NCBI GenBank assembly: GCA_032718475.1
Contig: JAUCBJ010004350.1
Coordinates: 62,001 to 126,000, forward strand
Direction of reading: 5' to 3'
Length of the DNA stretch: 64,000 bases
DNA from: Nemertoderma westbladi
Taxonomy: Eukaryota > Animalia > Xenacoelomorpha
Shown here: positions 16,493 to 64,000 of the stretch, piece after piece
Layout: every line of letters starts with the position of its first letter
Position numbering within the stretch: the first letter of the stretch is position 1
The notes under the pieces: model-generated
Told to the model about the DNA's origin: nothing
Database searches by the model: none
The model's input: the letters and a program-made list of their open reading frames with translations, nothing else
Program-made: the position numbers and the translations under genes

Positions 16493-16739
16493 GTCCTACT
16501 GTATTTTATCCTTTCTCCGTTTTCAATTCACAGCGCTCACGAAATATTTTAGCTCATATTATTGGCTATATTTTATTTAATTTTTGTAGTCTCTATGCAG
16601 AAGTAAAAAACATGAACATAAGAAGAGCATTTAGTATAAAATATAAATTATATTGGTTTGCATTGTACTCTTCAACTCCAATATATCAAAATATATCAAA
16701 TATATCTTAAAATAATATTGGTTTGCAACTGTTTTTCAG

Positions 16740-17341
16740 GTGACGATACTGTGATCCTTTCAGTTGCGCTCGCCGAGAATGTCACGTCTGACGATGATGA
16801 AGAGAGTTGGTTCGATGCTACCGCAAACTTCGCGGACATACTTAGGGAAACCTCTTGGAGGTTTTCCGATTGTGATGTGAACGCTATCATTGTTATCTCA
16901 GCCAATGAGGGAATCCTAAGACTATCCATCTCTTTGGATGATAATCTTCCATTTTTAGTTTGCTTAGTGGAAAAAATATTCCGTTCTAGAATAGACGACT
17001 TGGATGGCGGAGATGTATACTTAGCCTTATCGAATACTATCGACGACATTTATAAAATGTCTCACAAAGTTTTTAAACCCTGTGGAGGCTCAATCTCACA
17101 ATTAGCTATTGTAATAATGACGGTAATTGTCGCACTGGTGCTACTTTCGCTTTGTTTTGTTAAGATAATTAGTCGTAAAATATCTCCTAAAGAGGATAAA
17201 CCTAAGCGACAAGAGCCTGGACTACTTGTGCGATACTACAGGCGGAGGAGCACAGCGATTAGCCTGCACGCGGGAATGGAAATTAATTCATCGTTTCCAT
17301 TAAATTACAACGCACCTAATAGGCATCCAACAGAAGCATGA
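16740..17341 (+). CDS. MOLO-1/TPM-domain protein, exon 2
   Basis: TTTTCAG| acceptor in phase 1; TM helix LAIVIMTVIVALVLLSLCFV followed by basic tail; joined ORF 283 aa; AATAAA near 17464. Confidence 0.75.
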
Positions 17342-30580: not shown

Positions 30581-30708
30581 TATATAATATAATATGCAGA
30601 ACCTACAATCGTAAATAACTTATACACCATTAGCTCATATAGAAGCCAGACAGACCACCATACATATACCACCATACAGATTCTACTAACAGTAATTTTT
30701 TATTACAG

Positions 30709-30924
30709 AATAAAATTATCGAAGATTCTAGAACCAAATTTGATGAATCAATAAGTTCCATGGATGTTACCATAGCAACGTTACAAGCAACCAATGAACG
30801 GTTAGAAAGTGATTTAAGGAAACCCTGCGTGCAGTGTGAAGATTACGAATTTCAATTGGTTAAACTACAACATCAAGTGAAATCATTGTCCAATCAGATC
30901 AAAGAGAAAGTTCTTACAGTAGAG
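30709..30924 (+). CDS. EEA1: EEA1 coiled-coil exon (first seen in window)
   Basis: TTACAG| ... GAG|GTTAGT, phase 0/0, 72 codons of coiled coil. Confidence 0.75.
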
Positions 30925-30959
30925 GTTAGTTGTTCCGATCAGGATCAGCCAAGCCAATC

Positions 30960-32830
30960 AGATCAAAGATAAATATCGTACTGTAAAGTCCAGTAGTATA
31001 CCACCTACTGAATCATAGTAACGAAATAAATACCTTACTGTAGAATCCAGCAGTATATACGGGTTCGTACAGTATCTGACAAGAAATCCCAGTCCAGGGT
31101 GTCTAAATAAAAAGATAAAGTACACAAACGACTACTGGCGAGGAATGGAGCCTGATGTCTCTTCTAATACTTGGGCGAATCAAATGCCCGGGCTAACTAG
31201 ACAAACAGGATGCCCGGCCTTTAACCGGTGAGGCAGATGTACAGTCTACACATACAGACCAAACTCACCGGAAAACAATCCCCGCGTAGTGAATCATAAC
31301 TACCGCTAATGGACCTAAATACTATAAACTTGCCGCGGTGTGATTTATATGGGTATAATACGAGCTAGCGGGTCAACGACACTAGCGTAAGAAATAATAC
31401 TGCCGACAGGAAAAGACAGTCAAAAGGGGTGCCTGAGAACAAAACAATACTTCTACAAACTATCTTAAAGCGCGTGTGTGTGTGTGTGTGTGTGTTACGA
31501 TAAAACAATTTTGGTGTACCGCTGTTGTACTAGGTTTTGGTGATTTTAACAAAATAACAATACCGGGCGCTAGCTACTTGAATAAACTAGTCGCGCGCTG
31601 GTAGCGCAATACTTACAAACTGACGTCAAAAGGGCTCTCTCCTCCTATATTCACAACTCAGTCGGGAAATTACGGTGTTAGTAACTACACCCGCGATCGG
31701 CACTGATACCAGATTCTGATTGTGAGATAAGGAAATAGGGTGTTAATTTACTATCGTACGTATAGCTGATCTGGTATGTAATTGATTCTAGAATTTTGTT
31801 ACCGCGGTGGTCTGCAGTAAATACCTATCAGTGGGAGGGGAAGGGAATATGGGAAGGGCGTGGTAGATCGACCTCCCTTAGCCAAACATGTGCCGGTAGC
31901 AGAAAGCTGCCCCCTTGCTTGAGCAAATACTTTGGACTCAGACAGGTCAGTCAGACTGCAAGGCCTACAGAGCTAACCGGTACTGTACCGCTAGTAAGGC
32001 AAATCACCAAATTATAGAGCGTGCTGTTTGCACCTAGTGTACTTGCACGTACTAACAAACAGCTTCAGCTCGCACCTATAAGAGGTACAGGCTAACCGAG
32101 GGGTTCCTGTCTGAATCTGAGGTATTTGTTCCTATATTTTACGGCGTCCCAGGACGGCGTCACGCTTTCCCCTGATCTAAGCTCTTACGGCGGGCAAAGG
32201 CGTCGAACAAAGTCTTACTTCCTCTAACATGAGGTTCTCAGGCAATCGGGTCATACCTTCCAAATGGGTGTGGGTGAGATAGTCCGGGTTCCCTTATGTG
32301 TCGTGGACATCCCTTCCCCTTGCGTTGCTGTGGCCTAAAGGTCTAGGCAGCCATTCATTTGGCTGTTCAAGATAGATACGCTAAAGAACTACATGTTCAG
32401 AGTTTGCAGTACCCTATATTTTAACGTAAATAACAAAATGATTTATCAAACTAAACTAAACTAAACTTTACAATCAGAACAACAAGATAAGTGTAAGATT
32501 AGTGAAAACCGAAGGGCAAACGGCACCTTATATAGGAAATCCTAAGCATGGAATCACACTAGAACATTCTACCACATTCCATGGGCTCACATTGGACCAA
32601 TAAATTATTAAAATACTACTCAATTCACGTGTTGTACGCACTCCATTGGCTTATCGAGTTTGGCGAGACGGAAAATAAATTGCACAAAATATAAATATTT
32701 ACCGACCCAGATTCGAACTCTCTACCTATCTCATGCATAACCTGCGCACTAACCTTCTGGACCAATATGTGTGGTACTTAAATGAGTATAAGCTTCATTT
32801 GTGGGAGTATAATTCTGTTTTGACCGCACC
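30960..32830 (-). mobile_element. Solo LTR related to the BEL LTRs at 47460 and 62023
   Basis: Collinear shared blocks on the minus strand: AGAATTATA.TCCC, Pol III boxes, TATATAA, ATGGCTG.CTAGAC, GTTCGA.GCCTT, CATATAAATCACACCGCGGCAA, CTGCCTCACCGGTTA, ACTTTACAGTA.GATATT. Boundaries approximate; no TSD seen. Confidence 0.7.
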
Positions 32831-32917
32831 GGAAGTACGTCGCAAGACTTTGAACGTAATCCCTGAAATATGGCCGAAGAAACTTTGTTTTTTACTTTTT
32901 TTGGCAATAAATAATTC

Positions 32918-34721
32918 TTGTTTGTTCCGTTCTAGAAACTTGAGACAACTATCATTGGTTGTTTGTTCCGTTCTAGAAACTTGAGACAACTATCATTGGT
33001 TGTTTGTACCGTTCTAGAAACTTGAGACAACTATCATTGGTTGTTTGTTCCGTTCTAGAAACTTGAGACAGCTATCATTGGTTGTTTGTTCCGTTCTAGA
33101 AACTTGAGACAACTATCATTGGTTGTTTGTTCCGTTATAGAAACTTGAGACAACTATCATTGGTTGTTTGTTCCGTTCTAGAAACTTGAGACAGCTATCA
33201 TTGGTTGTTTGTTCCGTTCTAGAAACTTGAGACAACTATCATTGGTTGTTTGTTCCGTTCTAGAAACTTGAGACAACTATCATTAGTTGTTTGTTCCGTT
33301 CTAGAAACTTGAGACAACTATCATTGGTTGTTTGTTCCGTTCTAGAAACTTGAGACAACTATCATTGGTTGTTTGTTCCGTTCTAGAAACTTGAAACAAC
33401 TATCATTAGTTGTTTGTTCCGTTCTAGAAACTTGAGACAGCTATCATTGGTTGTTTGTTCCGTTCTAGAAACTTGAGACAACTATCATTGGTTGTTTGTT
33501 CCGTTATATAAACTTGAGACAACTATCATTGGTTGTTTGTTCCGTTCTAGAAACTTGAGACAACTATCATTGGTTGTTTGTTCCGTTCTAGAAACTTGAG
33601 ACAACTATCATTGGTTGTTTGTTCCGTTATAGAAACTTGAGACAACTATCATTGGTTGTTTGTTCCGTTCTAGAAACTTGAGACAACTATCATTGGTTGT
33701 TTGTTCCGTTCTAGAAACTTGAGACAACTATCATTGGTTGTTTGTTCCGTTATAGAAACTTGAGACAACTATCATTGGTTGTTTGTTCCGTTCTAGAAAC
33801 TTGAGACAACTATCATTGGTTGTTTGTTCCGTTCTAGAAACTTGAGACAACTATCATTGGTTGTTTGTTCCGTTCTAGAAACTTGAGACAACTATCATTG
33901 GTTGTTTGTTCCGTTCTAGAAACTTGAGACAACTATCATTGGTTGTTTGTTCCGTTATAGAAACTTGAGACAACTATCATTGGTTGTTTGTTCCGTTCTA
34001 GAAACTTGAGACAACCATCATTGGTTGTTTGTTCCGTTCTAGAAACTTGAGACAACTATCATTGGTTGTTTGTTCCGTTCTAGAAACTTGAGACAACTAT
34101 CATTGGTTGTTTGTTCCGTTCTAGAAACTTGAGACAACTATCATTGGTTGTTTGTTCCGTTCTAGAAACTTGAGACAACTATCATTGGTTGTTTGTTCCG
34201 TTCTAGAAACTTGAGACAACTATCATTGGTTGTTTGTTCCGTTATAGAAACTTGAGACAACTATCATTGGTTGTTTGTTCCGTTCTAGAAACTTGAGACA
34301 ACTATCATTGGTTGTTTGTTCCGTTCTAGAAACTTGAGACAACTATCATTGGTTGTTTGTTCCGTTATAGAAACTTGAGACAACTATCATTGGTTGTTTG
34401 TTCCGTTCTACAAACTTGAGACAACTATCATTGGTTGTTTGTTCCGTTCTAGAAACTTGAGACAACTATCATTGGTTGTTTGTTCCGTTATAGAAACTTG
34501 AGACAACTATCATTGGTTGTTTGTTCCGTTCTACAAACTTGAGACAACTATCATTGGTTGTTTGTTCCGTTCTACAAACTTGAGACAACTATCATTGGTT
34601 GTTTGTTCCGTTCTAGAAACTTGAGACAACTATCATTGGTTGTTTGTTCCGTTATAGAAACTTGAGACAACTATCATTGGTTGTTTGTTCCGTTCTAGAA
34701 ACTTGAGACAACTATCATTGG
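32918..34721 (+). repeat. 41-bp array of the EEA1 acceptor junction, 44 copies
   Basis: TTGTTTGTTCCGTTCTAG|AAACTTGAGACAACTATCATTGG; the last copy runs into the exon. Confidence 0.95.
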
Positions 34722-34884
34722 AGTGAATGAGGAGTCTGATAATATCAAGGCGCGGTACGAAACCACCCAGGCGGAGTTGCATCTACTGAAATCTAAAGAG
34801 AAAGAGTTACAGCAAGAATTGGCCATGGTAACGGATTCCAACGAAGAGCTGAAGATTACATTGGACAAGGCGACTAGTGAAAAG
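34699..34884 (+). CDS. EEA1: EEA1 coiled-coil exon
   Basis: TTCTAG|KLETTIIGVNEES...EK|GTTAGC, phase 0/0. Confidence 0.8.
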
Positions 34885-35101
34885 GTTAGCCGAGTGTTTC
34901 CGTTAACATTCAGACTGAGTAATAGATTACTGAAGCAGTGAGACCCGGAGTAAAGATTATATATGTTAAAGGCATTTATTTATTGTATTAGAAAATTAAA
35001 CACTTTCTGTTAAAAGCGAGTGATTTTGAAATACGTAGGATTTTGAAAATACAGTACATAATAGTAAGTTTGATCTGGCGAAATATCATTTTTTTATTTA
35101 G

Positions 35102-35233
35102 GATGAGTTAGAATTGGCGCGTAACGCGTTACAGTTGAGTAGTGAGCAGTTGGATTCCGTTAACAGAGATTTGGAGAAACGGTATACAACCTTACAGAAC
35201 GAACACGTTGAGTTAATGGATAGAAGCAACAAT
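35102..35233 (+). CDS. EEA1: EEA1 coiled-coil exon
   Basis: TTTAG|DELELARNAL...DRSNN|GTTAGT, phase 0/0, 44 codons. Confidence 0.8.
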
Positions 35234-35282
35234 GTTAGTCTGAGAGTCGTTTACGTTTAGTAAATTTATTGAAACCCAAGTT

Positions 35283-35437
35283 TCATAGATTTCTCCTCAG
35301 TTTCATACCACGTGTTCCGTCATCAAGTCTGCAGTTCAAATCTCCACCAATTAGAACCGGAAGTTGGAGGGGGTCTGTTTGATGGGGGAGATTGCGTTGT
35401 TGATTGATAGAATATACCTTGCAGACTGTAGTCGGGG
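35283..35437 (-). pseudogene. LINE AP-endonuclease fragment
   Basis: PVLIGGDLNCR resembles the APE GDFN motif. Confidence 0.45.
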
Positions 35438-35514
35438 TTAAATTAAAACATGTAATATTATGGGTTTGTTCAGAAGTGGAAAAAATGAGAAAGCGCGTCA
35501 CCGGGGGTTGAACC

Positions 35515-35560
35515 AGCGCTATACGTACGTTTCGGCCTAACAGGCCTCATCAGTAGCGCT
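35515..35560 (-). ncRNA. Minimal type I hammerhead ribozyme (minus copy)
   Basis: Exact reverse complement of 35688-35733. Confidence 0.85.
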
Positions 35561-35687
35561 AACCAGCTCAGCCACTAGCCCCTGACACGCACACTCCCAC
35601 CTAATCCACTTCTATTGAACGGGAATATGAACACTTCTATGAAATTGAATTAGGTGTGAGTGTCAGGGGCTAGTGGCTGAGCCGGTT

Positions 35688-35733
35688 AGCGCTACTGATG
35701 AGGCCTGTTAGGCCGAAACGTACGTATAGCGCT
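35688..35733 (+). ncRNA. Minimal type I hammerhead ribozyme (plus copy)
   Basis: Stem I AGCGCTA/TAGCGCT; core CTGATGA; stem II GGCCT-GTT-AGGCC; GAAA; stem III C-GTAC-G; GTA cleavage triplet at 35724-35726. Confidence 0.88.
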
Positions 35734-36411
35734 GGTTCAACCCCCGGTGACGCGCTTTCTCATTTTTTCCACTTTTGAATAAAACCATAATATTACACCT
35801 TTAATTACAGTTGCAACAGCTCATCTCCAATTTATTTAATTAAATTAAAACACGCTAAACAATGCAACACATAATATCATTAGAAATAACTAAGTTGGGT
35901 TTGGATGGGGAGTAATTGACGAAATAGTGAATAGTGAACGGCGGAGTCTTAAAATATTTAATCTTAGTTACCCGATGAATCTTAATATGTGGATTGGTGC
36001 TTAAGCGGGATCCCGATCCCGAAAAACAGGAATCCCGGTGGGTGCAATCCCTGTCCCGAACCCCATCTCGACTTTTTTGGAACGGGATCCCGAAGGGGGC
36101 CTATAATATAGTGAAGTAAATTTCTAGAATAACCGATGGATGTTTGCTAGTGAGTTGAAATCTGTTTATCATATCGAGTAGTCGGATTACTGGATTTCAT
36201 TAAACCATCTAGTAATCAACTGTAAATAAATTTTAATAAAATTTTATCTTACTAAAATCTTTCAGAAGTGTAAGATAAAGTGAGTGTTACCCAAAAACCG
36301 CCACATATACCTAGAACTTTAAGGGCATTTAATCCAAAATTGCATTCCCGATCCAGTAAATCGGGATCCCGTGATAATTCCGGTCCCGATCCCGGAAATC
36401 CCGAAAAGTCT

Positions 36412-36616
36412 GAGTTCATTGAATTGCCTGATCAACTTTTATGGCAACCAACACATGGAAAGCGTAGCCGTGGACGACCGGCTATGAGATATATTGACCA
36501 GCTCGAAAGGGATACTGAACTTGGGAGAAACGAAATTGCGACAACTATGGAGAATCGGGAAGCCTGGAAGGATCTCATTTCCACTGTCCGAGTTTGCTCG
36601 ACCTAGTAGTAGTAGT
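36412..36616 (+). mobile_element. 3' end of an RTE-like LINE
   Basis: LLWQPTHGKRSRGRP..YIDQL..MENREAW followed by stop and (TAG)n tail. Confidence 0.75.
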
Positions 36617-38765
36617 TGGAGAATCGGGAAGCCTGGAAGGATCTCATTTCCACTGTCCGAGTTTGCTCGACCTAGTAGTAGTTGGAGAATCGGGAAGCCT
36701 GGAAGGATCTCATTTCCACTGTCCGAGTTCGCTCGACCTAGTAGTAGTTGGAGAATCGGGAAGCCTGGAAGGATCTCATTTCCACTGTCCGAGTTCGCGG
36801 ATAATCGGGAAGCCTGGAAGGATCTCATTTCCACTGTCCGAGTTCGCGGAGAATCGGGAAGCCTGGAAGGATCTCAGTTCCACTGTCCGAGTTCGCGAAG
36901 AATCGGGAAGCCTGGAAGGATCTCATTTCCACTGTCCGAGTTCGCGGAGAATCGGGAAGCCTGGAAGGATCTCATTTCGACTGTCCGAGTTCGCTCGACC
37001 TAGTAGTAGTAGTTGGAGAATCGGGATGCCTGGAAGGATCTCATTTCCACTGTCCGAGTTCGCAGAGAATCGGGAAGCCTGGAAGGATCTCATTTCCACT
37101 GTCCGAGTTCGCGGAGAATCGGGAAGCCTGGAAGGATCTCAGTTCCACTGTCCGAGTTCGCGGAGAATCGGGAAGCCTGGAAGGATCTCATTTCCACTGT
37201 CCGAGTTCGCGGAGATTCGGGAAGCCTGGAAGGATCTCATTTCGACTGTCCGAGTTCGCACGTCCTAGTAGTAGTAGTTGGAGAATCGGGAAGCCTGGAA
37301 GGATCTCATTTCCACTGTCCGAGTTCGCTCGACCTAGTAGTAGTTGGAGAATTGGCAAGCCTGGGAGGATCTCAGTTCCACTGTCCGAGTTTGCTCGACC
37401 TAGTAGTAGTTGGAGAATCGGGAGGCCTGGAAGGATCTCATTTCCACTGTCCGAGTTCGCGGAGAATCGGGAAGCCTGGAAGGATCTCATTTCGACTGTC
37501 CGAGTTCGCACGTCCTAGTAGTAGTAGTTGGAGAATCGGGAAGCCTGGAAGGATCTCATTTCCACTGTCCGAGTTCGCTCGACCTAGTAGTAGTTGGAGA
37601 ATTGGCAAGCCTGGGAGGATCTCAGTTCCACTGTCCGAGTTTGCTCGACCTAGTAGTAGTTGGAGAATCGGGAGGCCTGGAAGGATCTCATTTCCACTGT
37701 CCGAGTTCGCGGAGAATCGGGAAGCCTGGAAGGATCTCATTTCGACTGTCCGAGTTCGCACGTCCTAGTAGTAGTAGTTGGAGAATCGGGAAGCCTGGAA
37801 GGATCTCATTTCCACTGTCCGAGTTCGCTCGACCTAGTAGTAGTTGGAGAATTGGCAAGCCTGGGAGGATCTCAGTTCCACTGTCCGAGTTTGCTCGACC
37901 TAGTAGTAGTTGGAGAATCGGGAAGCCTGGAAGGATCTCATTTCCACTGTCCGAGTTCGCGGAGAATCAGTGAAGCCTGGAAGGATCTCATTTCCAGTGT
38001 CCGAGCTCGCTCGACCTAGTAGTAGTAGTTGGAGAATCGGGAAGCCTGGAAGGATCTCATTTCCACTGTCCGAGTTCGCTCGACCTAGTAGTAGTTGGAG
38101 AATTGGCAAGCCTGGGAGGATCTCAGTTCCACTGTCCGAGTTTGCTCGACCTAGTAGTAGTTGGAGAATCGGGAAGCCTGGAAGGATCTCATTTCCACTG
38201 TCCGAGTTCGCGGAGAATCAGTGAAGCCTGGAAGGATCTCATTTCCAGTGTCCGAGCTCGCTCGACCTAGTAGTAGTAGTTGGAGAATCGGGAAGCCAGG
38301 AAGGATCTCATTTCTACTGTCCGAGTTCGCGGAGAATCGGGAAGCCTGGAAGGATCTCATTTCCAGTGTCCGAGCTCGCTCGACCTAGTAGTAGTAGTTG
38401 GAGAATCGGGAAGCCTGGAAGGATCTCATTTCCACTGTCCGAGTTCGCGGAGAATCGGGAAGCCTGGAAGGATCTCATTTCCAGTGTCCGAGCTCGCTCG
38501 ACCTAGTAGTAGTAGTTGGAGAATCGGGAAGCCTGGAAGGATCTCATTTCCACTGTCCGAGTTCGCGGAGAATCGGGAAGCCTGGAAGGATCTCATTTCC
38601 AGTGTCCTAGCTCGCTCGACCTAGTAGTAGTAGTTGGAGAATCGGGAAGCCTGGAAGGATCTCATTTCCACTGTCCGAGTTCGCGGAGAATCGGGAAGCC
38701 TGGAAGGATCTCAGTTCCACTGTCCGAGTTCGCGGAGAATCGGGAAGCCTGGAAGGATCTCATTA
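36549..38765 (+). repeat. Satellite of 49-, 66- and 69-bp units derived from the LINE 3' end
   Basis: GGAGAATCGGGAAGCCTGGAAGGATCTCATTTCCACTGTCCGAGTTCGC with or without TCGACC(TAG)nTT. Confidence 0.95.
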
Positions 38766-38885
38766 TAACACAAAACATATAACAATTATAAACCGCTTTT
38801 GGTCCCACCGACTAAAACAACAAAATAAAGCTAGGCCTATATATATATCTGTATATATATGACTAGGTAATTAATATTATTACAG

Positions 38886-39298
38886 ATGGTTAAAGATATG
38901 AATATTCTAGAACATGAGAAAGTTGATGTAGAGAAGCAACTGGCAGATACGAAGGTTGAATTAGTTGAATTGGAGAACGAGTTAGAAAATAGCAACGATA
39001 CCTCGTTGCGGAAACAGTTGGAATTCAATACTCAAATAACTAATCTAAGTAACCAATTAGAACGCGATAAATTCAACCACGAAAAAGAAACTAACTCGAC
39101 AAAGAAACTAGTTGAAAATCTCAATAATAAGGTTGGCGAGTTGGAGACTCATCGTTTTGAGTTAATAACGGAACTCACGGCGAAGAATAAAGTTATAGAA
39201 ACTCACGAAGTTAATTTCGATAACATTAAATCGGAAGTTGTTGTAATGGAAGCCAGATTGGAGAACATGTGTGAAGAGAAGAATGTTCTACTAGATAG
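38886..39298 (+). CDS. EEA1: EEA1 coiled-coil exon
   Basis: TTACAG|MVKDM...VLLD-AG|GTTGGT, phase 0/2. Confidence 0.85.
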
Positions 39299-41265
39299 GT
39301 TGGTATATATATAATACACCGTTACCGTTAGGTTGGTATATCTATAATACACAGTTAGGTTGGTATATCTATAATACACCGTTAGGTTGGTATATCTATA
39401 AACCGTTAGGTTGGTTAGGTTGGTATATCTATAATACACCGTTAGGTTGGTTAGGTTGGTATATCTATAATACACCGTTAGGTTGGTATATCTATAATAC
39501 ACCGTTAGGTTGGTATATCTATAATACACCGTTAGGTTGGTTAGGTTGGTATATCTATAATACACCGTTAGGTTGGTATATCTATAATACACCGTTAGGT
39601 TGGTATATCTATAATACACCGTTAGGTTGGTATATCTATAATACACCGTTAGGTTGGTATATCTATAATACACCGTTAGGTTGGTATATCTATAATACAC
39701 CGTTAGGTTGGTATATCTATAATACACCGTTAGGTTGATATATCTATAATACACCGTTAGGTTGGTATATCTATAATACACCGTTAGGTTGGTATATCTA
39801 TAATACACCGTTAGGTTGGTATATCTATAATACACCGTTAGGTTGGTATATCTATAATACACAGTTAGGTTGGTATATCTATAATACACCGTTAGGTTGG
39901 TTAGGTTGGTATATCTATAATACACAGTTAGGTTGGTATATCTATAATACACCGTTAGGTTGGTATATCTATAAACCGTTAGGTTGGTTAGGTTGGTGTA
40001 TCTATAATACACCGTTAGGTTGGTATATCTATAATACACCGTTAGGTTGGTATATCTATAATACACCGTTAGGTTGGTTAGGTTGGTATATCTATAATAC
40101 ACCGTTAGGTTGGTATATCTATAATACACCGTTAGGTTGGTATATCTATAATACACCGTTAGGTTGGTATATCTATAATACACCGTTAGGTTGGTATATC
40201 TATAAACCGTTAGGTTGGTTAGGTTGGTGTATCTATAATACACCGTTAGGTTGGTATATCTATAATACACCGTTAGGTTGGTATATCTATAATACACCGT
40301 TAGGTTGGTTAGGTTGTTATATCTATAATACACCGTTAGGTTGGTATATCTATAATACACCGTTAGGTTGGTATATCTATAATACACAGTTAGGTTGGTA
40401 TATCTATAATACACCGTTAGGTTGGTTAGGTTGGTATATCTATAATACACCGTTAGGTTGATATATCTATAATACACCGTTAGGTTGGTATATCTATAAT
40501 ACACCGTTAGGTTGGTTAGGTTGGTATATCTATAATACACCGTTAGGTTGGTATATCTATAATACACAGTTAGGTTGGTATATCTATAATACACCGTTAG
40601 GTTGGTATATCTATAATACACCGTTAGGTTGGTATATCTATAATACACCGTTAGGTTGGTATATCTATAATACACCGTTAGGTGGTATATCTATAATACA
40701 CCGTTAGGTTGGTATATCTATAATACACCGTTAGGTTGGTATATCTATAATACACCATTAGGTTGGTATATTTATAATACACCGTTAGGTTGGTATATCT
40801 ATAATACACCGTTAGGTTGGTATATCTATAATACACCGTTAGGTTGGTATATCTATAATACACCGTTAGGTTGGTATATCTATAATACACCGTTAGGTTG
40901 GTATATCTATAATACACCGTTAGGTTGGTATATCTATAATACACCGTTAGGTTGGTATATCTATAATACACCGTTAGGTTGATATATCTATAATACACCG
41001 TTAGGTTGGTATATCTATAATACACCGTTAGGTTGGTATATCTATAATACACCGTTAGGTTGGTATATCTATAATACACCGTTAGCTTGGTTAGGTTGGT
41101 ATATCTATAGTACACCGTTAGGTTGGTTAGGTTGGTATATCTATAATACACAGTTAGGTTGGTATATCTATAATACACAGTTAGGTTGGTATATCTATAA
41201 TACACAGTTAGGTTGGTATATCTATAATACACAGTTAGGTTGGTATATTTATAAACGTTAGGTTT
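39297..41265 (+). repeat. 27-bp array of the EEA1 donor junction, roughly 70 copies
   Basis: AG|GTTGGTATATCTATAATACACCGTT repeated from the exon end. Confidence 0.95.
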
Positions 41266-47459: not shown

Positions 47460-47588
47460 TATAGAATTATATTCCCTAAATGCCGTGGATTTTCAAAATT
47501 TTATTTTATTCGAATTAACTTTGCTAAAAGATTACATTGAGTCCTCATTTGTATTTGCTATTCCTATTTGAACGATGATTAGTCAAGT

Positions 47589-47673
47589 GGTTCAGTAGCT
47601 CAGTCGGTAGAGCGTTGGAAATTATATGTAGTGTGTATTGAGTTCGAATCCTAGTAGGTGCGAATTATTTTTT
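47589..47673 (+). promoter_or_regulatory. tRNA-like Pol III cassette in the LTR (second copy at 62152-62236)
   Basis: A box TAGCTCAGTCGG (47596), B box GAGTTCGAATCC (47640), T6 terminator (47668). Confidence 0.65.
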
Positions 47674-47739
47674 GTGCAGAATTTCAACTCATTTAAATTG
47701 ACCGCTACAAATTAATTGCATTTTGCTCGAAGTAAGATT

Positions 47740-48016
47740 AACCAATGAGACTGTAGTTATTAGATTGTAACCAATGTCGTACAAGTTATATATTTGCTGG
47801 ACCAATAGCTATCTTTAAAAACCTGTTAGAACCTATAGAACAATCGAGAATTTTCTCGATTGATTGCAGCACAAATTTGCTATATAAAGGTGCGATTTGT
47901 TCATTAGTTATCTTACACAATATATCTATCGTATCTATCTTTCATTCTTTCTCAGTTACATTATTTCAGATTACATTGTTTATTGTATAATAGTTATTGT
48001 TTGATTTTGTAATAAA
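47740..48016 (+). promoter_or_regulatory. LTR Pol II promoter and poly(A) signal
   Basis: Three ACCAAT boxes, TATATAAA at 47881, AATAAA at 48011. Confidence 0.55.
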
Positions 48017-50183
48017 AGTTAGAAATACTTGTCACATCTGCCCTTTTCTATCTGTTTTATCATGCTTCACCACGGTGAACTCAACTGAGGGACAGGATGG
48101 CTGGCTAGACATCGGGCCGCAGCAATGAACGGGAACATCTAGGGAATGTAGACAGGAGACAACCCGCAATATCATCTTAGTTATTCGCCCATCGCCTGAA
48201 AGGTTAGACAGCGTTCGATGCCTTGCTACCTAAGTGTAAGACCAAAGATCAAAGGTAGAGGTAGTGACACGCTGTACGCCTAAAAATTACATCTAGGGAT
48301 TGTACTGTTTTAATTCAGGAAAAAACCGCAGTAGACCTTCATATTCCTACGGGGGGAGAGCAGGCAGAGATACTAGTACGCAGATAGGACGTAGGCACAC
48401 CGGTACAAAGCATACACATTGGTAGGGTGCAGCAAACTGTATGCCTAACTCTTGCTAAGTACAGGTGCGTCTGCGACTATTTGTAGTACAACGGTGTCCA
48501 TTGCATTAGAACTTGTAGGCTAGGAGGGTTACTGTGTTTCACCTGAATTAGGATTGTACCGTTCAGGCGGTAGGGCAGTTTACGACTAGGCGCAAATAAA
48601 TTGAGGCTAATTAGGGATACTAACATCTACCGTGTCCCCGCCGACATCCTGATAGGAAGTTACCAAGCCCACCTAGGTAACCAAAATTCTAGATAGGACG
48701 CCAGGCTAGCTATTAGTAACCGTACGCCTACTGTAGTAAACTAACACATTTCTTCTTAGTATTAGGGACCTGGTAAATTAAAATTGCCGAATTCTGGGCG
48801 TAGCATTAACCTTATGCCTGAATTTGAGTCCTGGAAATACGCAAGAGGGGAAGGAACCTTATTATTCGTGAGTATTGGACCTACAAGTTACAAAATTAGA
48901 ATATTTGTAAAATGCACACCGTACCCAGTAATTATATATATGAAGGAGCAAAACTGATCTTGACGGTTCAGAATTAACACGCGCGCGTTAGAAATTATTT
49001 ACACCTCAAAATATATAAAATTAACTTTTGTCCGTACTGCACTTTGCCCGCTAGTTAGACATCTCCAAATCTCTGCACCTCTAGCTAGCGTCTCTTTCGC
49101 CCAACCATATAAATCACACCGCGGCAAAGTATACGAGCCCCTTAGTCCGTCAGTGAGTCAGCCTGATTTTAGAATTCGCTGCGCGGGATTTTGTTTTATC
49201 GAAGTTTGTCTGCTCGTAGACTGTTTTCTGCCTCACCGGTTATAAGGGACCAATACTGCAATATATTCGCTTACTTGGAGTTTACTGTTTTGGTGAGAAG
49301 GTCGGATTTATGATTTGATTCACAAACTTTACAGTAAGATATTGCAGGTATTGTTACTGTCTCTTCGAATTAGTAGGAATATGTTTTACTGAACTACGGT
49401 TCGGTAGGACTAAAGTTATTTGAAAATTTTGTATTTTGAGGTAAAAGTTTATATTTGATTAGCTAAGTGCTAATATTTTGAAATAAAATTTGATTTGAAC
49501 CGCGCGTAAAATATTTTTTGGAATTGAATACCGGTATTTTAAAAGGGTTTAAATACCATATTGTACCGGTACAACATTTTTCGTAAAAGTAAAACCTAAC
49601 TCTTTTGTTTTTCAGGATTCAGAGCTCATTTCTAGACTGTAACGAGAGCAAGACCGTGTTTAGCAAGTTTGGGAGATAGATAACTCAACAACTTTGGTTG
49701 GGAAAATCGCACTTCGTCCACAACGCTGGAAACGGAAAGGTTCACGTCCGGTTTGTATCTGGGAATCTGTTTTTCTGGAGAATTATTGGAGTGGGTGAGT
49801 TCGAAAAGTTGCATAAATAAGTTAGGCATTACCGTATTAGTTAAAATTATTGTGGGTTCCACTGTCTCAAGTATTTATGCATTCCGTACGATTTCTTTGT
49901 TTATTGCTGAATTAGTCCGTATTATTGTATTTAATTTATATTTTGATAACGCATATCGTTATCCGATTTATTTGTTATAAAATTGGCCGCTAGGCTATTT
50001 TTATTATATACTTATTCCGTGACATTTATTTGTTGTAAAATTGGCCGTTTAGGCTAATTTTATCCATCTGCTATAAAATCGGCCGGTAGGCTAATTTTAT
50101 ATGACCGTAATTAATACCGTTTTATACAAATACGGTAAGTTTGATACTTTGACACTCACTTTACTTGACTTACAACTACCGAA

Positions 50184-62022: not shown

Positions 62023-63932
62023 TATAGAATTATATTCCCTAAATGCCGTGGATTTTCAAAATTTTATTTTATTCGAATTAACTTTGCTAAAAGATTACAT
62101 TGAGTCCTCATTTGTATTTGCTATTCCTATTTGAACGATGATTAGTCAAGTGGTTCAGTAGCTCAGTCGGTAGAGCGTTGGAAATTATATGTAGTGTGTA
62201 TTGAGTTCGAATCCTAGTAGGTGCGAATTATTTTTTGTGCAGAATTTCAACTCATTTAAATTGACCGCTACAAATTAATTGCATTTGCTCGAAGTAAGAT
62301 TAACCAATGAGACTGTAGTTATTAGATTGTAACCAATGTCATACAAGTTATATATTTGCTGGACCAATAGCTATCTTTAAAAACCTGTTAGAACCTATAG
62401 AACAATCGAGAATTTTCTCGATTGATTGCAGCACAAATTTGCTATATAAAGGTGCGATTTGTTCATTAGTTATCTTACACAATATATCTATCGTATCTAT
62501 CTTTCATTCTTTCTCAGTTACATTATTTCAGATTACATTGTTTATTGTATAATAGTTATTGTTTGATTTTGTAATAAAAGTTAGAAATACTTGTCACATC
62601 TGCCCTTTTCTATCTGTTTTATCATGCTTCACCACGGTGAACTCAACTGAGGGACAGGATGGCTGGCTAGACATCGGGCCGCAGCAATGAACGGGAACAT
62701 CTAGGGAATGTAGACAGGAGACAACCCGCAATATCATCTTAGTTATTCGCCCATCGCCTGAAAGGTTAGACAGCGTTCGATGCCTTGCTACCTAAGTGTA
62801 AGACCAAAGATCAAAGGTAGAGGTAGTGACACGCTGTACGCCTAAAAATTACATCTAGGGATTGTACTGTTTTAATTCAGGAAAAAACCGCAGTAGACCT
62901 TCATATTCCTACGGGGGGAGAGCAGGCAGAGATACTAGTACGCAGATAGGACGTAGGCACACCGGTACAAAGCATACACATTGGTAGGGTGCAGCAAACT
63001 GTACGCCTAACTCTTGCTAAGTACAGGTGCGTCTGCGACTATTTGTAGTACAACGGTGTCCATTGCATTAGAACTTGTAGGCTAGGAGGGTTACTGTGTT
63101 TCACCTGAATTAGGATTGTACCGTTCAGGCGGTAGGGCAGTTTACGACTAGGCGCAAATAAATTGAGGCTAATTAGGGATACTAACATCTACCGTGTCCC
63201 CGCCGACATCCTGATAGGAAGTTACCAAGCCCACCTAGGTAACCAAAATTCTAGATAGGACGCCAGGCTAGCTATTAGTAACCGTACGCCTACTGTAGTA
63301 AACTAACACATTTCTTCTTAGTATTAGGGACCTGGTAAATTAAAATTGCCGAATTCTGGGCGTAGCATTAACCTTATGCCTGAATTTGAGTCCTGGAAAT
63401 ACGCAAGAGGGGAAGGAACCTTATTATTCGTGAGTATTGGACCTACAAGTTACAAAATTAGAATATTTGTAAAATGCACACCATACCCAGTAATTATATA
63501 TATGAAGGAGCAAAACTGATCTTGACGGTTCAGAATTAACACGCGCGCGTTAGAAATTATTTACACCTCAAAATATATAAAATTAACTTTTGTCCGTACT
63601 GCACTTTGCCCGCTAGTTAGACATCTCCAAATCTCTGCACCTAGCTAGCGTCTCTTTCGCCCAACCATATAAATCACACCGCGGCAAAGTATACGAGCCC
63701 CTTAGTCCGTCAGTGAGTCAGCCTGATTTTAGGATTCGCTGCGCGGGATTTTGTTTTATCGAAGTTTGTCCGTTCGTAGACTGTTTTCTGCCTCACCAGT
63801 TATAAGGGACCAATACTGCAATATATTCGCTTACTTGGAGTTTACTGTTTTGGTGAGAAGGTCGGATTTATGATTTGATTCACAAACTTTACAGTAAGAT
63901 ATTGCAGGTATTGTTACTGTCTCTTCGAATTA
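62023..63932 (+). repeat. 3' LTR
   Basis: About 7 substitutions and 2 small indels versus the 5' LTR by eye; preceded by short purine-rich GGAGCGG. Confidence 0.95.
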
Positions 63933-64000
63933 GTGGTGTATCAACAACCAGAGAGAATAATGTGTTCTATCTTGTAAAAGTGGTCGCTCTCCACTACTGT
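63933..64000. repeat. Continuation of the 66-bp array
   Basis: Same unit as 46441-47459. Confidence 0.9.

Follow-up and report, generated by a model that had tools for sequence, protein, structure and literature searches.

The components of the repeat described here are already known one by one: minimal hammerheads and an insertion signature in Penelope-like elements (PLEs), retrozymes, schistosome SINEs that carry a hammerhead, and Pol III boxes in terminal repeats. In the portions of the cited papers covered here, PLE insertions are described with an inverted, 5'-truncated copy and a tail of 30-40 bp (PMC8557442), and with an inverted pLTR, usually head to head, duplications of 8-10 bp and a 31-bp tail (PMC3846280). 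Two internal starts of reverse transcription define the tail, the first of them located 111-118 nt after stem II begins, and targets are AT-rich (PMC11167929). The minimal hammerheads of PLEs are inactive as monomers and weakly active as dimers, in the part of the report covered (PMC4209133). Retrozyme RNAs have a length of 170-400 nt (PMC7229834) and, in the consulted part of a review, seem to contain neither a promoter nor a motif naming their partner (PMC7761336), while a preprint, in the part available, argues that they derive from PLE terminal repeats (bioRxiv 10.64898/2026.07.22.740005). Two questions about animal retrozymes remain open in the field: their mode of transcription, and the enzyme responsible for moving them.

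We analysed a stretch of 64,000 nucleotides, the whole of which is called the window below, with a repeat inserted at 35438-35852. We propose that it is a non-coding, high-copy repeat copied by a PLE, with head-to-head arms and a tail, and with a dimer-cleaving hammerhead placed between tRNA-derived Pol III boxes; for this chain taken whole, we lean by a little towards its being correct. The family combines a candidate Pol III promoter with a complete PLE insertion signature. A previous reading, made from the sequence only, had considered a cassette of about 100 nt as the element, a view that the insertion does not bear out, the mobile unit being longer, the T6 run internal and paired, and the insertion of PLE type. 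That reading contained neither the second copy on the minus strand, nor the target-site duplication with its one-sided tail, nor the extension of the family past both ends of the cassette. The cassette is present twice, head to head, within one 13-bp target-site duplication and with a tail on one arm only, as follows.

35438..35450, no strand: left copy of the target-site duplication, 13 bp, AT-rich, exact repeat of 35840-35852; family coverage and loose ends stop at 35450-35451.
35451..35623, minus strand: inverted arm, without the tail and with 41 nt upstream of the G-rich head (self-comparison; coverage to 35620-35623).
35468..35620, minus strand: 150-nt rod of the inverted arm, with the hammerhead at its tip (predicted fold).
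35480..35485, minus strand: T6 run of the inverted arm (sequence).
35504..35514, minus strand: B box of the inverted arm (sequence, matrix score).
35514..35561, minus strand: inverted-arm hammerhead (48 nt without a difference from the direct arm).
35563..35574, minus strand: A box of the inverted arm (sequence, matrix score).
35624..35653, no strand: head-to-head junction (alignment of both upstream zones).
35654..35797, plus strand: part of the direct arm in common with the inverted arm (5 differences in 144 nt).
35798..35839, plus strand: one-sided 42-nt tail, a second 3' end of PLE type (direct arm only).
35840..35852, no strand: right copy of the target-site duplication (exact repeat; depth drops to single-copy level at 35852).

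None of the five differences between the arms falls in the ribozyme or in the B box, and 0 of 20,000 shuffles of both end zones reached a repeat of 13 nt. The inverted arm terminates at the equivalent of 35797 and the direct arm extends 42 nt beyond, which places the arm ends 96 and 138 nt from the point where stem II of the hammerhead begins, and 29 and 71 nt beyond T6. In both arms, the element begins upstream of where Pol III is proposed to start. The 5' boundary of the direct arm is not sharp, because 35640-35653 bears a loose resemblance to the upstream sequence of the family. Family data, here and below, come from contigs only: 5 of the 7 sequencing runs listed contain the stretch or part of it, and the direct arm was compared with runs X1, X2, X4 and X5, the inverted arm with X1, X3, X4 and X5. 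The tail is multicopy in X1, X2 and X4 and also present in X5. A MITE or DNA transposon was ruled out by the unequal ends and variable junctions of the arms, and two independent SINE insertions by the single duplication that frames both arms.

The insertion would lie within an apparent intron of a plus-strand coiled-coil gene, whose exon-like frames are spread over 30643-39314 (for instance 35102-35233, between AG and GT, and 38871-39314). In a protein search, no homologue was found for the frame 38871-39314 among longer proteins, nor for the frame 16739-17338. In a plus-strand transcript spanning both arms, the predicted fold-back abolishes stem I (P 0.00) and, therefore, the copy at 35438-35852 should not cut the host pre-mRNA. 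Downstream of the insertion, the segment 36003-36400, which may be a small mobile element of its own, contains short repeats of GGGATCCCG type and an inverted pair of 20 nt (36006-36025 and 36073-36092). A minisatellite with units of 49, 66 and 69 nt occupies 36274-38764 and apparently grows from the end of a reading frame, which we take to resemble the 3' end of a LINE.

Every motif named by the sequence-only reading is present where it had been located, as checked on the sequence. Its assignment of a minimal type I hammerhead of the PLE kind, likely to cleave as a dimer by prediction, agrees with the core, the stems, the palindrome and the co-fold. The features of the direct-arm cassette are the following.

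35666-35673, plus strand: G-rich head (sequence).
35674-35685, plus strand: A box (sequence; matrix score).
35666..35692, plus strand: G-rich head, A box and D-arm-like block together (sequence; A-box score).
35687..35734, plus strand: minimal type I hammerhead (sequence, stem pairing, co-fold).
35687-35694 with 35727-35734, plus strand: stem I of the hammerhead (8 bp; 11 counting G-U pairs).
35695-35701, plus strand: hammerhead core CUGAUGA (sequence).
35702-35714, plus strand: stem II (5 bp, 3-nt loop).
35715-35718, plus strand: GAAA box (sequence).
35718-35725, plus strand: perfect 8-nt palindrome, which stands for stem III (sequence).
After 35726, plus strand: predicted cut of the hammerhead.
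35734-35744, plus strand: B box (sequence, score; no variant among those listed, four runs).
35763-35768, plus strand: T6 run within the element, perhaps a Pol III terminator (sequence; listed family variants at or below 6%).

A pattern joining the core to the B box gave 2 matches in the window and 0 in 100 shuffles, and so did a pattern joining the A box to the core. With respect to minimal type I hammerheads of PLEs, the catalytic boxes CUGANGA, GAAA and U16.1-H17 are all present, together with a helix I of 8 bp and a helix II of 5 bp bearing the G10.1-C11.1 pair (G-U at 10.1-11.1 in 11-32% of the family depth), and the perfect 8-nt palindrome supplies the palindromic 15.2-16.2 pair and loop 3. 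The extra base between core positions 9 and 10.1 is absent, A9 directly adjoining a paired G. The hammerhead model search that had been proposed as a check gave no Rfam match reaching the gathering score, the best being a partial Hammerhead_3 match (19.2 bits, E 0.18); we infer that such a miss is expected for a minimal variant. No tRNA was found in the cassette, either by the Rfam search or by ARAGORN at default settings, and the miRNA matches returned by Rfam were set aside as a by-product of the inverted repeat. Two copies of the 48-nt motif co-fold unaided into a dimeric hammerhead (-44.4 vs 2 x -16.7 kcal/mol), and the ribozyme is predicted to cleave as a dimer and little as a monomer. 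A variant seen in runs X1 and X4 joins 35731 to 35686 and thereby forms a tandem of two hammerheads, with a 65-nt period and 19 joining letters that include a piece of the A box; this variant, of depth 241 in X4 and 27 in X1, is a ready-made cis dimer.

We examined the two boxes with matrices built from 122 of 158 unique tRNAs that adjoin pattern matches without lying inside them, 36 without an anchor being dropped; these tRNAs are prokaryotic and viral, not those of the host. The A box scores 11.5 bits (10th and 50th percentiles of real tRNAs, 7.2 and 12.7) and the B box 13.2 bits, at the 10th percentile of real tRNAs (13.1; 50th, 19.7). With the ribozyme fixed, only 1 of 100,000 flank shuffles reaches the summed score, so that the tRNA-type boxes reported on both sides of the tract are found beyond chance. 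Their spacing of 60 nt, compared with 42-57 in the matrix tRNAs, is workable. The boxes are not independent: in the RNA as predicted, a portion of the A box is paired to the B box (P 0.96-0.99 in the direct arm and 0.74-0.76 in the inverted arm); with this pairing granted free, the joint chance, calculated with a consensus of the boxes, is still about 1e-6 to 6e-6, and the box letters beyond the paired stretch match too. The pattern made of the head block and the B box lies within an ARAGORN tRNA at 236 of 239 fetched loci, a result that shows compatibility only, as the pattern was designed from the element itself. We gave no weight to the relaxed ARAGORN call of the cassette as a tRNA-Asn pseudogene, since this setting makes 92 calls in the window, and a tRNA cloverleaf in the RNA was rejected, the T-stem having a probability of 0.01 and the D-stem strand being used by stem I. 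Considering these data together, we are confident that the boxes are of tRNA origin.

The window has further A/B-box sites, none of them similar to the hammerhead repeat. The segment 47460-63934 is a young BEL/Pao LTR retrotransposon with Pao peptidase, DUF5641 and integrase zinc domains, and its LTRs (47460-49374 and 62023-63934) are 99.5% identical. Of all A/B-box pairs in the window, the strongest is that of these LTRs (47596/47641 and 62159/62204; 31.5 bits), which is followed by a T6 run; the LTRs resemble the tRNA-like LTRs of the Helenus type, yet in a coding element. A second pair (32764/32719, 26.2 bits) is found on the minus strand at 32400-32830, a segment weakly similar to the BEL/Pao LTR (75% over 40 and 55 nt) and perhaps a solo LTR of a related family. 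On the minus strand at 897-940, what may be a decayed SINE head combines a weak A box (6.0 bits) with a strong B box (18.8 bits). The segment 24848-29087 holds a non-LTR retroelement with a frameshift (RVT_1, E 1.4e-4), the first frame of which contains a 30-nt tandem array; this element is not similar to the hammerhead repeat, and from its motifs we presume it to be CRE-like.

The copies form a young, homogeneous family. The direct arm is matched by 1163 contigs in X1, 2165 in X2 and 92 in X4, and we estimate the number of copies at about 100 at least. The summed depth in X1, about 90,000 vs 27 in the flanks, is not a copy number: taken at face value it gives about 3,300 copies, and about 100 if each word has a contig to itself, and summed contig depth varies twofold within the cassette. 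One contig with a minor deletion reaches, alone, 76 times the single-copy depth. Different flanks join at 35450-35451 in 34 + 23 contigs of X1. Beyond the cassette, the repeat extends by at least 40 nt on the upstream side and 70 nt on the downstream side; coverage of the inverted arm continues to 35620-35623, and the next letters are common to 15 contigs of X3 and 2 of X4. A 371-nt contig of X5 runs from 35723 to 35752 by way of the tail, 124 unseen letters and the upstream part, with a self-overlap of 30 nt that implies a cycle of about 341 nt. This contig is a single record of depth 5.5 under another organism label (organism B), its status as RNA being guessed, and may represent a tandem repeat or a circular RNA, DNA being possible. 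The full unit is probably about 341 nt, a retrozyme size; no tandem arrangement of 341-nt units is present at the 35438-35852 locus.

The common variants spare the fold. In X1, X2 and X4, respectively, 35681 G>A (39, 22 and 84%) keeps the A-box purine and changes G-U to A-U, 35708 T>A (50, 40 and 82%) lies in loop II, 35714 C>T (32, 27 and 11%) turns the conserved first pair of stem II from G-C into the weaker G-U, and 35722 A>G (2, 14 and 10%) retains the dimer helix. The core-breaking change 35701 A>G is below 0.1% in X1 and X2 and reaches 8% in X4. This pattern agrees weakly with selection; the sparing of the boxes is itself weak evidence, because the family is young and the variant tables seem incomplete (the arm difference at 35683 is not listed). 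A step of depth at the cut site was dropped, as the rise at 35720-35743 returns by 35780, and only 1 of the 10 direct-arm joints listed falls exactly at 35727, as chance allows.

Among the opposite-strand joints listed, 13 are distinct, and in 7 of these the end lying furthest 5' is at 35660-35673 (P 0.003 if truncation is uniform, for an interval chosen post hoc). In 3 of 3 runs, the region upstream of the head has a summed depth 0.25-0.35 times that of the cassette; no pile-up of loose ends at 35660-35670 appears among the ends listed. At 35438-35852 the 5' end of the element does not coincide with the tRNA-like head, and other family copies run far upstream. The tRNA-like scores of the boxes and the junctions clustering just upstream of the A box make the use of Pol III plausible, and we judge present Pol III activity, on such sequence features, to be reasonably probable. 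As a rule, the body of a SINE2 is devoid of an internal Pol III terminator; here T6 is internal and retained in the family, 29-71 nt before the 3' ends. Likewise, a SINE-like 3' tail (LINE-like or simple repeat, on a single direct copy) is not present, the ends being of PLE type. An RNA ending at T6 cannot be the template, because it would not contain the 3' ends seen in the genomic copies, and the retention of T6 is also explained by its pairing in the rod. The rod of the inverted arm has a predicted energy of -68.7 kcal/mol (z -4.09, 0 of 200 shuffles), and its purine-rich 5' strand, which starts 38 nt upstream of the head, would pair with the T6 region. The segment 35660-35768 alone is not unusually stable (z -0.76), and the direct arm has lost the outer rod (z 0.20), its upstream part being degraded, with private changes at 35775 and 35780. 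Our reading is that two kinds of template exist, a Pol III read-through RNA starting at the head and a longer RNA from tandems or circles.

The element is likely a non-autonomous, PLE-mobilised chimera of retrozyme and SINE. Mobilisation of PLE type is very probable, and the chimera suggested by the sequence-only reading is supported. From the observed insertion anatomy, abundance and extent beyond the cassette, we infer the steps of transcription and copying as follows, the cutting being predicted. Pol III would initiate near 35660-35673. A fraction of the polymerase would halt at T6 and give a transcript about 100 nt long from which no copy could arise, and another fraction, reading past T6, would give the template that accounts for copies beginning at the head. 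Longer templates, i.e. tandem units of about 341 nt or circles, would yield copies with upstream sequence such as 35438-35852. As a lone hammerhead is nearly inactive, most of the RNA is predicted to stay uncut; in tandem or paired RNAs, the cut after 35726 would free a monomer with the B box at its 5' side and the A box at its 3' side, which could regain the promoter only after ligation into a circle. The reverse transcriptase-endonuclease of a PLE would nick AT-rich DNA and begin to copy at two internal sites, 35797 and 35839, leading to the short arm and the tailed arm. Copying of a linear monomer from these sites would yield merely 71 or 113 nt without the A box, and uncut RNA or a ligated circle would yield a copy with the whole promoter. 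Ribozyme mutants of an anole PLE still insert in vitro, in the part of the study covered (PMC11167929), and cutting may therefore be dispensable. An autonomous PLE partner (RT and GIY-YIG, related terminal region) was not found within the 64-kb window, and a relic of a PLE ORF after stem II was discarded, the 32-aa frame there giving 0 protein matches.

It is fairly unlikely, in our view, that the repeat is a PLE terminal repeat or a non-LTR retrozyme of the ordinary kind that owes its transcription to Pol II or to read-through, with the boxes either a silent tRNA-derived relic, kept since they pair together in the rod, or a TFIIIC chromatin mark. The fold fits this explanation, as the structured unit begins 38 nt upstream of the head whereas the Pol III segment alone is unremarkable (z -4.09 vs -0.76), and so do the A-box letters that pair with B-box letters in both arms and the internal position of T6. 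The BEL/Pao LTRs of the window likewise bear A/B boxes and a T run, and retrozymes are described as promoter-less in the consulted part of the review (PMC7761336). However, the match of the boxes continues outside the paired stretch, the junction ends cluster at the head, and depth steps down upstream of it.

A Pol III gene complete in itself, about 100 nt long and giving an RNA that self-cleaves or serves in trans as the dimer partner with which longer transcripts of the element or of the host are cut, would agree with the retention of the A box, B box, T6 and ribozyme in the family, and two 109-nt RNAs indeed co-fold into a strand-swapped dimeric hammerhead (-87.2 vs -76.2 kcal/mol). Such an RNA, however, is devoid of both genomic 3' ends and hence cannot spread the family, and a nested co-fold of the short RNA with the long rod gives no intermolecular pairs (kissing dimers are not drawable in it); this gene is improbable. 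A chance resemblance of the boxes within a GC-rich ribozyme stem is more improbable still: neither Rfam nor default ARAGORN calls a tRNA, the T-stem probability is 0.01, the best tRNA match of the segment between the boxes lies within its null, and many hammerhead families were read within a large scan, but just 1 of 100,000 shuffles reaches the box score, and a tRNA fits the order, the 60-nt spacing, the G-rich head and the block that follows the A box.

Within the preferred chimera of PLE-mobilised retrozyme and SINE, the ribozyme might have been built inside a tRNA-Asn gene, the anticodon arm becoming stem II with a GUU loop and the 3' side of the arm the GAAA box, which would make the element a PLE-borne Pol III retrozyme; we consider this origin unlikely and treat the resemblance to tRNA-Asn as a lead, not a result. 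The 41-nt middle segment did not enter into any search pattern; it aligns colinearly with the anticodon arm of giant-virus tRNA-Asn(GTT) (L036, L042, L062 and L072), with 14 of 17 aligned letters identical in L072. Among 20 isotype groups, Asn ranks first by mean score (282 of 289 unique tRNAs; the eight Asn are not independent). The best score of the segment lies within the all-tRNA null (153 of 300 shuffles), and is equalled by 119 of 5,000 shuffles against six giant-virus tRNAs; against four Asn tRNAs, a set picked after seeing the score, it is equalled by 44 of 5,000 shuffles and by 73 of 5,000 random stems with the core fixed. The loop of stem II reads GAU in 40-82% of the family depth, which counts against a GUU anticodon. 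If this origin were true, a hammerhead would have been assembled out of a tRNA arm with the A and B boxes left in place, the promoter would straddle its own cut site, and new active copies would be founded only by uncut multimers or re-ligated circles.

The nested layout was new to the author of the sequence-only reading, and no ribozyme between A and B boxes was found in the literature searched, Repbase and Dfam being outside its scope. The search covered main texts, and the supplements of PMC4209133, which list many PLE hammerheads, could contain one; the portions covered of PMC2770079, PMC6309819 and PMC6685494 contain nothing further on this layout. The same layout had 0 matches in viral contigs and 0 in prokaryote genomes, and 27 pattern matches in metagenomes, with stems I and II in 0 of 27; these collections contain little animal DNA, and the result is therefore uninformative on distribution. 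Nor did the literature searched show a promoter straddling the cut site. As the cut falls between the promoter boxes, the family directly tests circular RNA as a transposition intermediate: copies made from cut linear RNA must be without the A box, and those made from circles or uncut RNA must have it.

The following comparisons refer to the portions of the cited works that were covered. The minimal type I hammerhead with a palindromic helix III is like that of hammerhead-bearing EN+ PLEs (PMC4209133), and the head-to-head inverted copy, the target-site duplication and the AT-rich target are those of EN+ PLE insertions (PMC8557442, PMC3846280, PMC11167929). The one-sided tail is also PLE-like, its 42 nt being slightly above the range of 30-40 bp (PMC8557442), as are the 3' ends about 100-140 nt after stem II (PMC11167929). 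In contrast with PLEs, the repeat has no ORF and no partner was found in the window; its ribozyme is flanked by tRNA-type A and B boxes, unlike the pLTRs of PLEs with their TATA/initiator-type promoter-like motifs, and it does not have the extra base between core positions 9 and 10.1 of metazoan PLE hammerheads.

With metazoan non-LTR retrozymes the repeat shares its non-coding nature, a type I hammerhead, the unit of about 341 nt, a rod-like fold and the proposed dependence on PLEs. It differs from retrozymes, said to be promoter-less (PMC7761336), by its candidate Pol III boxes; the hammerheads of invertebrate retrozymes are mostly canonical and active as monomers, whereas that of the repeat is of the minimal type. 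Retrozymes form tandem repeats of 150-450 bp, each bearing a type I hammerhead, and give abundant monomer RNA in linear and circular form; here tandem arrays and circular RNA are hinted at by one contig.

A small-RNA-derived Pol III promoter within the terminal repeat of a non-autonomous retroelement is also found in the TRIMp3 elements Helenus, Ajax and Cassandra, and the Helenus box letters TRGCY, YGG and GGTTC all occur in the repeat; TRIMp3 are, however, LTR elements with a primer-binding site, a polypurine tract and no ribozyme in the promoter (PMC10886601). The schistosome Sm-alpha and Sj-alpha repeats likewise unite tRNA-derived Pol III boxes and a hammerhead in one repeat (PMC6765202, PMC2576457, PMC2770079), boxes A and B of Sm-alpha being given in PMC2576457 too, and there, as here, the position of the promoter relative to the cut decides which copies propagate (PMC6765202). 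In Sm-alpha, the promoter precedes a canonical hammerhead and both boxes lie on one side of the cut (PMC6765202), whereas in the present repeat the ribozyme is of the minimal PLE type and the predicted cut falls between them.
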